Assembly: GCF_006345805.1 (NCBI RefSeq)
Contig: NC_043005.1
Coordinates: 68,820,001-68,884,000 of the forward strand
Source of the DNA: Octopus sinensis
Lineage: Eukaryota
Direction: 5' to 3'
DNA length: 64,000 nucleotides
Shown here: one piece after another, positions 9,472 through 60,040 of the stretch
How the letters are laid out: each line of letters starts with the position of its first letter
How positions within the stretch are numbered: the first letter of the stretch is position 1
Notes under the pieces: generated by a model
Databases searched by the model: none
What the model was told of the DNA's origin: nothing
What the model saw: only the letters and a program-made list of their open reading frames with translations
Program-made: the position numbers and the translations under genes

Positions 9472-10068
9472 GAGGATTATTATTTCTAATCTCCATAAAG
9501 GAGACTAAGGCAGCAGTACTGGGTATTAATAGATATCGCCAAGCTAGCATGTCAGTCCTTATCAATAAGGAGTAGCCGAACCCAGTAGGGGGAACCTGAT
9601 GACCGCACCCTGTTCGAAGGTTGTAATGGACACAGCTCTCTGTGTACATAGCTAGCTAGAGGTGATAGTCTATTGGAGCTAATCAACGGCAGCATTCGTC
9701 CTATTTTTCTGGAGTGCTATGTTATCTTAGCAATTACTATTAATACTCAGTACTGCATCCGTAGTTTCCTTTAGGGAGATTTAGAAATAACAATATTTTC
9801 ATTTTTGAAAACCAGTGAATGTGTTCTACTGAATGTATATAAAAAAAACATTCGAGCATTCGGCTACAGCACATTGAAAATACCCCGGAAACCGTTCTGT
9901 GGCTGTTGCACCAGCAGTGGAGAGCTGATGTCCTACCCTGTTTGAAGGTGATAATGGACACAGGTTTGTTTCAGATAGCTAGATAGAAGCTATTGCCTCT
10001 TGGAGCTAATCAACGGCAGCATTGGTCCTATTTTTGTCGACTTCCATGTTAGCTTGTCAATAACTATA
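9472..10068 (+). mobile_element. Retrozyme/pLTR-like repeat: inverted partial unit plus ~1.4 tandem units (period ~328 bp)
   Basis: CTGTT(C/T)GAAGG...ATAGCTAG.TAGA...TTGGAGCTAATCAACGGCAGC recurs at 9610 and 9938. 9472-9582 is reverse-complement unit sequence. Homologous to 57166-57888. Confidence 0.75.
9866..9906 (+). ncRNA. Degenerate type I hammerhead motif, U3:A8 variant
   Basis: ACAGCACA-TTGAAAA-taccccg-GAAA-ccgt-TC-TGTGGCTGT. Stem I is intact with one bulge; stem II is eroded. Confidence 0.5.
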
Positions 10069-10250
10069 TATATAGTGTATATTTCGCTTAAAATTAACCT
10101 TCACTGAAAGTATCGCTCGCTCGCGATGTTTCGCTTAAAATGTCGTTAAACATTTATTTTCCTCAAAATGACATTGCTCAAAGTGAGTGGTACTCGAAAT
10201 CTCACTTGGTTCTTCCTTCTCGTAGATTGATGTGAATGCACAATAGAAAA

Positions 10251-44301: not shown

Positions 44302-45134
44302 ACATTAGGGTGAATTGAAGAAATGGAGCTGAACGCAGATTGAACAGAATCGTTTTTATTTCATTCTACACGTGTTTCGAAAGGCACAAATTACCAAAAT
44401 CCGATTGAATAATGGGACCATTGTGTCTTTCTCTTCAGGAAGAAAAAAGGAAATCCGTTGGAAAAACAAAAACATAACAGAGGCGGAGCAAAAAACAAAT
44501 CGAACTGTGCTCCCAAGAGCCATGGCGAACTGTTTATCAGTGTATGTTGAGAACCGGTGGCTGAAGAATTCAACGGGTCAGGCATCGGTCAATCATGTGG
44601 GTGAGGGTGTATAGATGTTCTTTGTGACGGAGAATAAAGTTCTGACTATTTAAAGAATATTGGATGTTTTATAAGTGGCGAGAAAAACTACTTAGAGACG
44701 TGTGTGTGTGTATACTGTTCTATATATGTGTGTGTTGGCGTAGGGGTAGAAAACATTTTTTGTGTACGTGTGTGCGTTTGATCGTTCGGCTGTCAGTGGC
44801 TACTGCCGTGATAACCGTTGGGTGGCAGAAAGAAAAAAAAAAAATATATATATATATATATATTATGTTTTATGTGTGTGTGTGTTCATCTAAGCCTACC
44901 TTGTCAAGGAAACCCCCCGCTGTGAAAAAACCAAGCCCCGTTTGTCTTACAGGAGTAATTCCCCTTGCAGTGGTCAATCGTAGATATCTTAAAGGCTATT
45001 TCTAGTGGGCTTTTCAAATCAAATCAGTTCTGGGAAGTTTGAACATTTTATAGTTTTGTAGTAGTGGGTGAGGAGGAAGTGAGACAGAGAAAAAATGTGT
45101 GTATGTGTGTGTGTGTGTGTGTGTGTATGTGGTT

Positions 45135-45575
45135 GTGCGTGCGTGTGTGTGTGTGTGTGTGCGCGTTTATATCTGAGAGTGAAGAAGTGTTATTTCCGTT
45201 GGTCTACTGGACCGCCTGTGGTTTTATAAGAACTTTGGCCGTCCATTTCGATGTCACTGAGTGTGTGTTGTGCGTAGGTTGGCCTGGCAAATGTCATTTG
45301 GGTTCACACTTTCTATGATCATTCTGTGGAGTGTGTGTGTGTGTGTGTGTGGTCCTTGTGTCCCTGTGTGTTTTCGTGTTGCGTGCGTGTGTGTGTGTGT
45401 GTGTGCGCGTTTATATCTGAGAGTGAAGAAGTGTTATTTCCGTTGGTCTACTGGACCGCCTGTGGTTTTATAAGAACTTTGGCCGTCCATTTCGATGTCA
45501 CTGAGTGTGTGTTGTGCGTAGGTTGGCCTGGCAAATGTCATTTGGGTTCACACTTTCTATGATCATTTGTGGAGG
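45135..45575. repeat. Tandem duplication, period 244 bp, ~165-bp identical cores between (GT)n tracts
   Basis: GCGCGTTTATATCTGAGAGTG...CTATGATCATT at 45161 and 45405. Confidence 0.95.
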
Positions 45576-45648
45576 TTGTGTTGTGTGTGTGTGTGTGTCT
45601 CTGTGTGTCCCTGTTGTTTTCGTGTGCGTGCGTGTGGTGTGTGTGTGT

Positions 45649-45680
<32 letters not shown>

Positions 45681-53400: not shown

Positions 53401-53805
53401 TAGAAGTGACTGTGTGGTAAGTAGCGTGCTTACCAGCCACGTGGTTCCGGGTTCATTCCCACCACGCGGCACCTTGGACGAGTGCCTTGTACTATAACCA
53501 CGGACCGACGAAACCCTTGTCAGTGGATTTGGTAGACGGAAACTGAAAGAAGCATTTCGTATATATGCATATATATATATATATGTATGTATATGTTTGC
53601 GCGATATTGTTTGTCCCCCCAAATCATTTGACAACCGTTGGTGGTATGTTTACATCCCCGTAACTTAGCGGTTCAGCAAAAGAGACCGATAATATAATTA
53701 CTATGCTTCCAAAGAATAAATATCATGGGATCGATTGTTCGACTAAAGGCGGTGCTCCAGCATGGCGGCAGTCAAATGACTGAAACGAGTAAAAAAATAA
53801 AAGAG
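53398..53805 (+). mobile_element. SINE family B, full length
   Basis: tRNA head (GTGTGGTAAG; GGGTTCATTCCC), CORE-like GCACCTTGGACGAGTG, internal (TA)n, LINE-type tail. Confidence 0.92.
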
Positions 53806-53807
53806 TG

Positions 53808-53858
<51 letters not shown>

Positions 53859-55050: not shown

Positions 55051-56561
55051 AGCCCTACCCACCGTCTAAGTAATTTTATTGACATTGTTTTGAAACCACT
55101 ATGTACTTACATACCCAGTTTCATCAGGGATGACATCGACTTCCTGTCCCGTCTTCCCCAAAACAACAGAAACAAATTCAGTTTTACTAAGTTTTGATGT
55201 GGTAAGCCTCTACACCAATATTCCAATAGGAATAAAGGCGATTAAATACTGGTTAGAAAAACATAGAGAAGTGATTCCCAGCAGATTCACAGTGCCATTT
55301 ATATTAGACACAGTCAAACTTATTCTAGAAAACAATACATTCTTCTTCAATGGAAAGAATTACATCCAAATTAGAGGCACGGCGATGGGAACGAGGTTTG
55401 CTCCCGTTTACGACAACTCTGTAATTGGATACTTAGAACAACAACTCTACCAAGAGGTGGAGGTAAACTATGGCACTGGATTTAGAAAGTATATTGAAAA
55501 GGCATGGAAGAGATACCTTGACGACTGCTTCATAATCTGGACAGAATCTCTAAATACTCTGGAAGAGTTCAATATCCTCCTGAACAACCTACACCCATCT
55601 CTCCAATTACAAAGGAGATAAGTAGTACCAAATTACCATTCCTAGATATAATGGTAATTAAAAAAGACACACCATCACCACAGATATATACTATAAACAC
55701 ACAGACACACATCAATACCTAAATTTTAAGTCGTGCCATCCACCACATGCAAAACGCAACATCCCATACTGCCTAGCCAGAAGAATTTGTACCATTATAG
55801 ATGATGCAAATATCAGGAACAAACGCCTAATAGAACTAAGAGAATTTTTGCTCAAACAAAAATACCCATCTCTACTTATAGAAAATGGCATACAGCGGGC
55901 TATAAAAATACCCATACAACAACTTAGGTAGGACAACCCAAGGAAGAGGAAAACAAGAACAAGTCATACCATTCATAGTGGCACACAACCCATGTCACCA
56001 GAATATTTTCAACATTGCAAAAGCAAACCTACCAATCATTGCCCAAAGTAATGAATTAAAAGGCATAATCACGGATCGAGCTATGGTGCTTAGTAAAAGA
56101 CAGCCTAAAAACTTGAAAAAATTACTAACAAAGGCAAAATTTGACCTTAGCAACAAAGACCAAACATTCACTGTATCTAAATGCAATGATAATCGATGTG
56201 ACACATGCCAATTCATACATACCGACCAATATATAAAGACAAAAACCGGGAAAATATTCACAAACGCGAATATGAACTGCAAAGGCAGAAATTTAATTTA
56301 CTGCATCAAATGCCCAAATTGTGAAGAAATATATGTAGGTCAGACAGGAAACGCACTATCAGAACGCTCACGTGTATCCGGCAACAGATTAGAGACCCAG
56401 AGGTCCGTCAGATACCTTTGAGTAACCACCTAGCAACATGTGGCCGGAAAATGTATATAATATTTCCGTTCTACAAATTACACAGCCCAAGTGAAATCGA
56501 GAGGAGAATCAGAGAAAAGAATTTTATTGATAAATTCGAACCCAAGCTAAATAAGCAATAG
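55051..56561 (+). pseudogene. Penelope-like retroelement RT + GIY-YIG, 5'-truncated and frameshifted
   Basis: RT motifs SFDVVSLYTNIP, GTAMGTRFAP and RYLDDCF; Cys linker KCNDNRCDTC; endonuclease NLIYCIKCPNCEEIYVGQTG. Ends ..FEPKLNKQ*. Confidence 0.95.
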
Positions 56562-57165
56562 TAATAATACTTAGATAGCAGGAAAATTATCTTATTTAGG
56601 GTTAAAAGTTCTATTGCCACCACCATCACCACTAGCAACAATAATTAAGGTGCTGACAATGATGATGCTGGCAATTGAAATATAAAAATATAAAAATCTC
56701 TGACAAAGGCAATTTACACCATTTCTAAAAATAGCCCAACAATTGCTGCTTCGGCCAGGGTCAAGGTACAGGACTCTTGACATGTCCAACAAAGCGTGAC
56801 GCCTAAACCAGTCAGCTCAACCAACCAATCAGCTTAAGTAATTGAGTGATGCTACACACTGATTGGTCACTGATTGATTACAAAACCTAGCATTTGGAGC
56901 CTACCCAACTGTATTTAAAGCACATATTCAATCATCTCGCTACAGTCAAAAATTGTGAAGCATGACTGTCACCACTACTACATGAACCTGAAGATTGCAG
57001 AATTTAATGCATGAAAGTACTAGTTCAATGAGAATGAACATTTAACATTCTATTATTTTATTTTATTTTATTATATTATCTTATATCATTATCAGATTGT
57101 AAATAAAACGTGAAAATCAGACAAGGTCGGACTTCCTTTTATTAATATATTCTTCTATACACAAT
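56562..57165 (+). mobile_element. 3' pseudo-LTR of the Penelope-like element
   Basis: Follows the endonuclease stop. Contains CCAAT/ATTGG boxes, TATTTAAA, a hammerhead and AATAAA (~57102). Confidence 0.7.
56981..57030 (+). ncRNA. Minimal type I hammerhead ribozyme of the PLE
   Basis: CATGAAC-CTGAAGA-t-TGCA-gaatttaa-TGCA-t-GAAA-GTAC-TA-GTTC(a)ATG, with palindromic stem III AGTACT. Confidence 0.85.
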
Positions 57166-57311
57166 GGCAGTCATATAAATATAAGACTAAAGCTGTCGCT
57201 GATTAGCTCCAAGAGGCAATCGCCTCTAGCTAGCTATATGACACACGAACCTGAGTCCATTACAGCCTTCGAACAGGGGAGGTCAGCCGCTTCACATTGC
57301 TAGTGAGACAT

Positions 57312-57352
57312 CTGCAGACATGTTTCAGGGTTGTTGCCCTTTATCAATGCAG
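57312..57352 (-). ncRNA. Minimal type I hammerhead, U3:A8 variant
   Basis: Minus strand reads CTGCA-TTGATAA-AGGG-caacaa-CCCT-GAAA-CATG-TC-TGCAG. Confidence 0.8.
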
Positions 57353-57675
57353 CGTAGTCAGATTCAGCCGGAGTCGCTACTGACCGTCTGTTCGAAGGTT
57401 GTAATGGACGCAGGTTCGTGTGTCAAATAGCTAGCTAGAGGCGATGGCCTCTTGGAGCTAATCAGTGACAGCTTTAGTCTTATATTTATAAGACTGTCAT
57501 ATTAGTATGGCGATAACTATTAATATCCAGTAACGCTGCCGTAATCTCCTTTAGAGAGACTTAGTAATTTTAATACTTCTATTATTGAAAACAGGTGGAT
57601 GTATTCCACTGTAACTAGGTAAATAAAATCTTCGAACAGACGGTCAGTAGCGACAACTGCTGAGTCTGACTACGC

Positions 57676-57714
57676 TGCATTGATAAAGGGCAACGACCCT
57701 GAAACATGTCTGCA
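57676..57714 (+). ncRNA. Minimal type I hammerhead, U3:A8 variant
   Basis: TGCA-TTGATAA-AGGG-caacga-CCCT-GAAA-CATG-TC-TGCA. Confidence 0.8.
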
Positions 57715-57882
57715 TATGTCTGACTAGCAAGGTGAAGCGGCTGACCTCCCCTGTTCGAAGATTGTAATGGACACAGGTTCGTGTGTCATATAGCTAGCTA
57801 GAGGCGATGGCCTCTTGGAGCTAATCAGCGTCTGCTTTAGTCTTATATTTATAAGACTGCCATATTAGTATGGCGATAACTA

Positions 57883-57932
<50 letters not shown>

Positions 57933-58068
57933 CATACATAAAAATAATGTTTGTGGTGTGTGTGTGTGTGTGTTAAGGTACAAATTAACATACCCTAAGT
58001 TTCAATTAATTGGTGATTGCATTTTAAAAAAACATGTATTCAAATATACACAGCAAATATACATATGC

Positions 58069-58125
<57 letters not shown>

Positions 58126-58127
<2 letters not shown>

Positions 58128-58435
58128 CAGGACCAGATACTGCAACAGCTTCAGATGACCACAGCTCTTTAACATCCTCCCTAAATGCCTGAGAGACTTG
58201 CATGCTGTGGATGTGGGTTTCTTTAAAACTAAACTGGATCTCTTCTTGTCGGGGATCCCACATGAACCTACCTCACGACAGGAGACACAGAAGCGGGCAG
58301 CGACATCGAACTCCCTTGTTGACCAAGTGCCACCTATCAGAGGTGGATTCACATATTAGTGTAGCTCATTTAGTGGTGGTGCCCCAGCATGGCCGCGGCC
58401 TTCGGGCTGTAACATTTTTAAGGATTTAAGGATTT
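58126..58435 (+). mobile_element. 3' end of a CR1/L2-group LINE (ORF2 C-terminus, 3' UTR, short-repeat tail)
   Basis: My translation: PQLFNILPKCLRDLHAVDVGFFKTKLDLFLSGIPHEPT...RAATSNSLVDQV. The tail ends (TTTAAGGA)2. Clade assignment is tentative. Confidence 0.8.
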
Positions 58436-59348
58436 ATATATCTACATACATATATATATATATATATACATTTGACTTGTGGATAATTATTTTCTGTCCC
58501 CATATTTAGTATGCACAATGAAATTCAGAATATTTTTGTTCATTATTATTAATCTATACAAGTATTTAGTAAACTGTTCCGTAGAAATGAATGACACATT
58601 AGTTCAGTGAGGGATCAGATAGATAAGTGGTAGATATATCGATAGATAAATAGGTTGACACATAGTTAAATAGATGGATAGATATATAGAGAGTTTGATA
58701 GATGGACAGGTAGACAGGCAAATAGAAAAGTACAGACAATGTTGTAATTTGACCTGGAAAACAACAATAAGTCGAAATAAACTAAAAATAATGTTGCTGA
58801 ACTAAAATAGTAGTTTCTGTATTTCTTGTATTTTTAGTTTAAGTATATAACCCAATATATTCAAGAAGCTATTCCTTTTCAAACTAATAACAACCAGAAA
58901 GTTTCAACGTTAAATATTTGATATTATAAACTTACGTAAAAAGATACATAATAACTATCTATATAAAATTTTAAAAAGTATTTTCCTTTTTTTAAAAAGG
59001 CTAGCGTGTTTTTTCCTAAATTTCCAGGTTAAAATCTTCCTTTTTTCTGTACTTTTCCCTGTCCAACTCTCAGACGTTTTCTAGTATTCGGTGCCCGCAT
59101 TCTAATCCACATTTTTCCTGACTATTCTATTATTTGTATTATTATTATAACTAATTGTACGCCCTTTATGACAGAAAAAGTGATAATAACGTATTTTCTT
59201 CGATGCAGATTTAGCACCTAAAAAAACAACAAAGGATTAATTGCTGCATATATGTTAGAAATAAATATATTTTTCCCAAGTTTTATAATAACAAAATGTT
59301 ATCTTATCTAAACAATTAATAATAAATTTTTAATGATTGGCTTTTTTT

Positions 59349-60040
59349 ATTAATAGAGGTAACAAAAGTGACGGAGAGAACTGATTAGCACCGCTTTTCG
59401 AAACATAAGAGTTCAACTCACTGTCTTAATTGACTGACAAAAGGAGGTAAGTCCCCAGCGTACATAGTCGGATCTCAATTTCGGATTTTGACGTAGACCT
59501 CAGCAGTGGCTCTTAACGCCTAGGGTTAAACTCAACTCAGTCTTATAAGTAAGAATAAAAAAAAAATATTGAAAAGGTGTCCTGATTTCGAAAACGGTAA
59601 ACGTGTAAAAAAATAAATTACGCTTGGGACTTATCTGCCTTTGTCAGGAACTGAAGACTGTGTGTTTGTGGTTTTGAGTTTAACTCTTATGTTTATCAAA
59701 AGCGGTGCCAGTCGTTACCCTCTATCACGTTTCTGACCTCTATTAATTTTGCCTTTAGGTTTTTAATTTGTTGTCTACACTTTTACGATTTTGGAAATCT
59801 GCACAGATTTTCAATGGTTTTTCTTATACGACTGAGAGACGTAGTTGAGTTTAAGAGCCGTTGTTGAGCATTAAAATGGTCTACATAAAAATCCGAAATC
59901 CGAAACGCTATCTGCTTGGGACGTACCTTACTTTGTGTGTCATATCAGACAATGCGCTTTTGGCTTTGAGTTAGTTTAGCTCATATTTTTAGCAAAATCG
60001 GTGCCAGTCAGTACCATCTGTTACTTTTGTGACTTCTCCT
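59349..60040. mobile_element. MITE/foldback element: TIR pair 59349-59747 plus a second, more diverged right arm (~59830-60040)
   Basis: Termini ATTAATAGAGGT...ACCTCTATTAAT. GCACCGCTTT/AAAGCGGTGC and TAAGTCCC/GGGACTTA pair internally. Confidence 0.75.

Follow-up and report, generated by a model that had tools for sequence, protein, structure and literature searches.

Our analysis identifies a dispersed, non-coding family carrying a type I hammerhead with a U3:A8 core, which we read, with a probability of about 80%, as a non-LTR retrozyme whose RNA is copied into (TA)n by the reverse transcriptase (RT) and GIY-YIG nuclease of a Penelope-like element (PLE). One of its loci lies in the window, that is, the whole 64-kb stretch of DNA that was analysed. 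The initial annotation had proposed a non-autonomous hammerhead family mobilised by PLEs, and both the absence of an open reading frame and the Penelope-like insertion anatomy support this proposal. The U3:A8 core as such is already known; what is added here are sister families in which the 3:8 pair is broken, together with an anatomical record of PLE mobilisation.

The unit and its locus

The locus is a single insertion of a 363-bp non-coding unit, made up of an inverted arm, a partial tandem, a full unit and then (TA)n (Table 1). Positions within the unit are written u, the reference unit being 57527-57889 (+) of the window. The end at u363 is likely the first of two reverse-transcription start sites, and the microsatellite that follows it is the likely insertion target. 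According to the predicted fold, the rod around the plus-strand hammerhead would juxtapose the ends of a cleaved monomer.

Table 1. Features of the locus and of the adjoining element (window coordinates)
Feature	Position	Strand	Details
Penelope-like element, 5'-truncated, frameshifted	55052..57165	+	RT, CX4CxxC linker and GIY-YIG
Minimal type I hammerhead of the adjoining PLE	56983..57027	+	CUGAAGA core, palindromic AGUACU, helices by eye
Inverted arm, u98-337	57164..57403	-	223/240 identical; back-to-back with the + arm
Second hammerhead	57312..57352	-	Core 57347-57341; C17 = 57317
Partial tandem, u225-363, 5'-truncated	57388..57526	+	132/139 identical at period 363
Full unit, u1-363	57527..57889	+	Sequence comparison
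u1-59 stretch	57527..57585	+	Elsewhere often follows u363 as an optional 3' tail; second fixed end
Predicted long rod around the hammerhead	57624..57766	+	RNA fold
Type I hammerhead	57676..57714	+	Core UUGAUAA 57680-86 (U3 57680, A8 57685)
Helix I	57676-79/57711-14	+
Helix II	57687-90/57697-700	+
GAAA	57701-04	+
Helix III	57704-09	+	Palindromic ACAUGU
Predicted cut	after C57710	+	C17
3' end of the full unit, u355-363		+	TATTAATAT; first of two fixed ends
(TA)n microsatellite	57890..57929

As the initial annotation had described, both copies at the locus read UUGAUAA and the parts of a type I hammerhead are in place, on the plus strand (UGCA-UUGAUAA-AGGG-(6 nt)-CCCU-GAA-ACAUGU-C-UGCA at 57676-57714) and on the minus strand, where helix I has 5 bp and the loop reads CAACAA. 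When both strands of the window were scanned by script for cores whose positions 3 and 8 pair, just these two came up; the scan missed the minimal hammerhead of the adjoining PLE. The two sit on opposite strands, which agrees with the earlier observation of one hammerhead per strand here; head-to-tail copies with at least two hammerheads on the same strand are absent at this locus and form only a minority elsewhere (3/120 arms with two complete hammerheads). Two hammerheads on one strand were also seen at loci L022, L034, L035, L036 and L064. The plus copy is slightly decayed: its loop 2 reads CAACGA, against CAACAA in 34/35 aligned pieces, and its helix I has 4 pairs, against 5 in 36/37 aligned pieces. 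Rfam returned no hammerhead at E≤10 for window positions 55500-59500.

A genome-wide search for the unit (2.72 Gb) gave 2,772 first-look candidates, 40 of which were scored. The 3' 17-mer has 1,930 exact genome matches, compared to 0 for its control, and TGCAYTGATRAAGGG, a 15-mer over the core, has 593, compared to 7 for the reversed control. Copies of the 363-bp repeat thus occupy well more than a thousand dispersed places in the genome. With a length of 363 bp and a GC content of 0.42, the unit, like its relatives of 340-365 bp, falls within the 150-450 bp and GC <50% used to recognise retrozymes, and full units carry the type I hammerhead with canonical helix sizes that is expected of them. 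Coding capacity is absent, the longest M-to-stop frame being 8 aa (+) or 30 aa (-) when read round the circle. The predicted circular fold is stronger than chance in 6 natural units (z -4.3 to -9.7, 40 dinucleotide shuffles each), and the minus strand pairs with itself just as strongly (z -4.9 to -9.1), so the effect is not strand-specific. Outside the hammerhead, covariation is modest among 19 full units of 78-100% identity, with double changes at 16/85 predicted pairs (term -1.09). Long tandem arrays, which are typical of published retrozymes, were not seen among the fetched loci. At L184 (G000:C11098:29000-31600), a C3:G8 sister family forms a 351-bp tandem with two hammerheads. The tail of L184 looks homologous by eye.

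Other repeats were noticed in the window. Positions 9473-10073 hold an older insertion of the same superfamily (72-82% identical) with the same anatomy, namely a short inverted arm with tail, a partial tandem and (TA)n, in which the hammerhead is partly deleted. A 244-bp tandem with 2.1 copies (96% identical) lies at 45134-45651, and other repeat fragments, with one short repeat common to both, lie at 58129-58420 and 53748-53847; a short reading frame among these fragments presumably resembles the end of a non-LTR element.

Insertion anatomy and the likely template

We analyzed the insertion anatomy in 120 arms from 67 regions, after dropping 11 overlapping loci; a few duplicated segments remain in this sample. 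The 3' ends of the arms fall at u355-363 in 55/120 and at u52-65 in 50/120 (105/120 together), that is, at two fixed sites 59 nt apart, while 5' truncation is variable. Seventeen of the 120 arms are longer than one unit. Both ends fall on fixed sites in 35 of the 43 back-to-back pairs: 31 of these carry one tail, 4 none and 0 two (p=1.2e-6). (TA)n borders one or both ends of 22/42 inverted loci, compared to 7% of random positions, and neither end of the other 20. Such flanks would mask target-site duplications, which in non-LTR retrozymes are longer than 4 bp where they occur. The copies display the PLE-type insertion features: two 3' ends, an optional tail, partial tandems, an inverted 5' copy and an AT-rich or (TA)n target. 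Two fixed ends, truncation and inverted arms have been described as PLE structure (PMC8557442), and for the anole PLE, cutting and priming on both strands and two internal RT start sites were reported in vitro (PMC11167929).

The arms also bear on the nature of the template. All 42 arms that reach u186 run on to u180, and the cut site shows no peak of 5' ends (0/42 of these arms stop there). As a cleaved monomer would contain the two fixed ends, copying of a linear monomer would stop at u185; since copying instead crosses the cut site and continues beyond one unit, a circle or an uncut multimer is the likely template. The 5' stops are mildly in excess at u186-200 (10 stops), u141-160 and u216-240, at predicted helices, with uncorrected p values of 0.005-0.016; the value for u186-200 (p=0.005) precedes correction for 7 bins. 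The excess at u186-200 could reflect some cleaved templates. To see whether both arms of a locus stem from one RNA molecule, we compared them with other loci: they are closer to each other than to the median other locus in 31/31 pairs, but at least as close as to the nearest other locus in only 5/31.

At L113:1499-2129, one arm joins two tandem units that belong to different subfamilies (identity of 76% on the upstream side of the cut site and 93% on the downstream side), which suggests a template switch or recombination. We considered this chimera as evidence of ligation and rejected it, as the switch falls downstream of the cut site, at around u190-230 by eye.

Contigs assembled from four runs that we guessed to be RNA cover the unit and join u363 to u1, and some of them extend across the cut site. 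Since genomic tandems yield the same joint and contigs are blind to ends, strand and circles, they are uninformative here, and contigs for a U·G family from guessed-RNA runs are likewise uninformative. Cleavage and circularisation of the unit RNA are inferred.

States of the 3:8 pair in the superfamily

Within the family of the window unit, U3 is present in 32/32 loci and A8 in 33/33; these come from 67 regions picked by the 3' pattern, whatever their ribozyme sequence. Variants common to at least 3 loci affect 0/9 core positions compared to 46/97 neighbouring positions (p=0.0045, U3:A8 family only). For the helices we compared 31 rows, the two window copies and 29 distinct loci out of 55 with a U six places after GAA; double-sided changes occur at 13/14 pairs, pairing holds in 88.7% of cells and 0/500 shuffles score as high, a control that overstates the result because the rows are preselected and related. 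At 3:8, these rows comprise 16 U:A and 15 C:G. Helix III is palindromic in 37/55 loci, with several different palindromes, as expected of hammerheads working as dimers (PMC4209133). Core sparing and helix covariation indicate that the hammerhead is under selection.

A spaced hammerhead pattern with positions 3 and 8 left free and the loop CAAAUA gave 682 matches compared to 1 for the control, of which 595 are U:A, 44 C:G and, by subtraction, 43 other. The initial annotation had expected CUGANGA-based searches to overlook this family; they overlook most of the superfamily, as in this loop class, where 44/682 matches are canonical. Across the superfamily we found U3:A8 (595 or more), C3:G8 (151), U3·G8 (398) and C3·A8 (108), counts that do not form one table since the loop sets differ among the pattern searches, and that are silent on the conservation of the other core bases, which the patterns fixed. 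The C3:G8, C3·A8 and U3·G8 matches at the TGCAYTGATRAAGGG stage of the search have no BLAST match to the unit.

The U3·G8 state occurs with other loop sequences (398 matches compared to 0 for the control). Of 30 fetched loci (L218-L247), 27 belong to two amplified families with near-intact helices. Family A comprises 20 loci with units 340-358 bp long; helix I has 6/6 pairs in 18 of them and helix III is palindromic in 19. In family B (7 loci), helix I has 5/6 pairs in 6. Median pairwise identities are 0.905 and 0.935, respectively, some loci being the same insertion, and both families show tandem and inverted arms, some with a (TA)n end. One U3·G8 family was also seen with a GUU site and one helix I mismatch. 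C3·A8 gave 108 matches compared to 0 for the control, and C3:G8 gave a further 107. C3·A8 recurs in older groups (L248-L257, L278-L297) with their own compensatory helix I sequences; helix I is often complete (on average 5.2/6 pairs in 30 loci), while helix II is weaker and palindromes are fewer (11/30). In one group, the 10 matches among the first 100 listed comprise 4 C·A, 5 U:A and 1 U·G (hand tally). The C3·A8 state is therefore less secure, and CpG decay can account for some other C·A matches.

A tree of 126 rows, built with positions 3 and 8 masked and 10 same-insertion rows dropped, requires 13 changes among the four states, and its well-supported branches force at least 3-4 changes per state; an earlier tree of 58 rows had 4 state changes. 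Being short and unrooted, the trees do not give the order of the 3:8 events.

The initial annotation had taken U3:A8 for a compensatory pair. This holds in that U3:A8 is fixed in the family and C3:G8 is found in sister families; strict covariation does not hold, given 398 U3·G8 and 108 C3·A8 matches. The Watson-Crick pair is kept in the family of the window unit and broken in the U·G and C·A sister families, and because U3·G8 and C3·A8 mark whole families, positions 3 and 8 do in part vary independently at the superfamily level. C3U and G8A single mismatches strongly slow hammerheads. The single mismatches C3G and G8C were reported to do so as well (PMC11167929). The U·G (hundreds) and C·A (about 100) natural copies thus break a pair treated as essential for an active hammerhead. 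The supposed novelty of the U3:A8 core itself did not survive the literature: natural U3-A8 cores were published in 2011 and 2014, UUGAUAA included (PMC3088659; PMC4209133), with some 1,300 U3-A8 matches among S. mansoni PLE ribozymes and UUGAUAA shown in the supplement of that report (PMC4209133). In the literature that we searched, we found no natural U3·G8 or C3·A8 core.

That the 3:8 pair has shifted between C:G, U:A, U·G and C·A is consistent with selection on fold and core, not on fast cleavage. We tentatively go one step further, in a reading to which we give less than even odds. The hammerheads of the superfamily would have walked through all four pyrimidine-purine states. U3·G8, and C3·A8 probably too, would have become fixed in source elements, which went on to multiply into hundreds of copies with their helices still covarying. 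The wobble cores would be working ribozymes tuned to be slow, as the uncut or circular RNA would be the template that PLE proteins copy; or else the fold would dimerise two RNAs for two-strand priming. The copies would then be a direct record of PLE mobilisation, in which each DNA strand has one RT start site. The 3:8 series offers natural material on how compensatory pairs evolve through single-change intermediates and on the amount of cleavage that a retrozyme requires.

An alternative which we consider unlikely is that the unit is a PLE-mobilised repeat whose hammerhead cuts negligibly, the fold and core being kept as a structural signal that might, for instance, dimerise two RNAs via the palindromic helix III or bind the PLE protein so that both strands are primed. 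It agrees with the fixation of U3·G8 in two amplified families and of C3·A8 in older groups, with the lack of 5' stops at the cut site, with arm pairs made of one tailed and one tailless arm, and with the report that PLE insertion in vitro is independent of ribozyme cleavage, hammerhead mutants having no effect (PMC11167929). It accounts less well for catalytic core bases spared by subfamily change (in the U3:A8 family only), or for a pyrimidine at position 3 and a purine at position 8 in 99/100 of the matches listed in each of two pattern searches (hand tallies). The 84/120 arms that lack a complete hammerhead also speak against it, though they reflect cDNA length and not the RNA.

In the retrozyme interpretation that we prefer, tandem copies would be transcribed, and two hammerheads would pair via the palindromic helix III and cut slowly after GUC to give monomers, which a host ligase could circularise. 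The PLE protein would bind the RNA near u363-u59 and nick both strands of AT-rich DNA, and reverse transcription would be primed on both, from u363 on one and from u59 on the opposite strand, which would leave back-to-back arms of which one is tailed; the template would be a circle or an uncut multimer. Since U·G and C·A families were amplified and PLEs insert in vitro without ribozyme cleavage, cleavage may be dispensable. A 2026 preprint reports cleavage in only 1/9 predicted retrozyme dimers (bioRxiv 10.64898/2026.07.22.740005).

The candidate Penelope-like partner and known systems

The PLE that adjoins the unit in the window gave weak Pfam matches below the curated cut-offs, and its atlas neighbours carry GIY-YIG and RVT_1 at 0.96. 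The CX4CxxC linker is a mark of Neptune/Nematis-type PLEs and has been associated with (TA)n targeting. The family is abundant (1,544 first-look candidates), and 24 other fetched copies, two of which are one insertion, are 92-97% identical. The copies end at TATTAATAT, the 9-mer also found at u355-363, or around 27 nt further, mostly in (TA)n, though the query favoured tailed copies; they carry inverted arms and their own minimal CUGAAGA hammerhead. In the window, both the last 12 nt of the PLE and the 3' end of the unit's inverted arm are gone, probably through a later deletion. At L150 and L240, the copies of a second PLE family likewise end in (TA)n. Retrozyme copies at L150, L240 and L199 lie a few hundred bases from PLE ends, with microsatellites between. 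Beyond the terminal 9-mer, the comparison of the unit with the PLE terminal repeat gave no convincing homology, and the 3'-end folds differ. Because wider homology is lacking, an A/T 9-mer is weak and a second PLE family is also found in (TA)n, the adjoining family is only a candidate mobiliser. It is not part of the unit.

That the unit is instead the terminal repeat (pLTR and tail) of an autonomous PLE, the copies being its 5'-truncated remains, seems very unlikely to us. Its anatomy is the same as that of PLE ends, and opposite-strand hammerhead pairs 100-700 bp apart are known in truncated PLEs (PMC4209133). Upstream of u1, however, we mostly found u363 of the unit or an inversion and not a common body, and the hammerhead geometry is canonical, not minimal. 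PLE peptides, with one family as query, match few of 105 and 158 loci, and no RT and GIY-YIG reading frame flanked by the unit was found in the fetched loci with the same queries. At L150, L240 and L267, PLE and unit are separated by microsatellites or unrelated DNA, while L021 and L028 were judged by distance only. That the hammerhead is a chance look-alike in a MITE or satellite with inverted repeats is extremely improbable, for in spite of the missing Rfam match and the long inverted arms at the locus, 13/14 pairs covary, the core is conserved, the pattern has 682 matches compared to 1, and the arms are back-to-back, truncated and of variable length, not fixed terminal inverted repeats.

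The literature that we searched on octopus and cephalopods contained no paper on such a retrozyme family, and we found no retrozymes described with a comparably detailed PLE footprint. Metazoan non-LTR retrozymes are the closest relatives: mussel units measure 350-390 bp (Cervera and de la Pena 2020, PMC7229834), and the unit shares with those described there its size, GC content of 0.42, lack of ORF, self-paired predicted circle, head-to-tail units and canonical type I hammerhead with a short palindromic helix III. Unlike them, it is found mostly as scattered partial tandems that carry inverted arms and lie in (TA)n, not as long arrays, and its dominant core is U3:A8 with U3·G8 or C3·A8 in sister families. 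The same compensatory core links it to the Cercyon PLE hammerheads of S. mansoni (PMC4209133) and to natural U3/A8 variants (PMC3088659). The S. mansoni hammerheads are minimal and lie in, or derive from, pLTRs (PMC4209133), whereas the unit is ORF-less and its motif has 5-6/4-bp helices, with UAC preceding helix I and CAAnnA as loop 2.

With endonuclease-positive PLEs (Neptune/Nematis-type linker; anole Poseidon, PMC11167929; PMC8557442), the unit shares two 3' ends, 5' truncation, partial tandems, an inverted 5' copy with a tail at just one of the ends, targets that are AT-rich or (TA)n and a hammerhead upstream of the start sites; it differs from them by lacking an RT or nuclease ORF and by a tail of 59 nt compared to 30-40 nt. 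Non-autonomous, PLE-dependent and inserted head-to-tail, it resembles retrozymes as PLE derivatives (bioRxiv 10.64898/2026.07.22.740005) and non-autonomous Chlamys elements such as MRC1 (PMC8557442). That preprint builds its case, mainly for vertebrates, on co-occurrence and on homology to pLTRs; for the unit, the PLE comparison yielded no pLTR homology and the support is the insertion anatomy. PLE mobilisation of animal retrozymes has so far been proposed from co-occurrence and homology, and the octopus copies show the PLE footprint itself: each strand has its own start site, two in all, copying continues past the cut site, and a candidate partner can be named.
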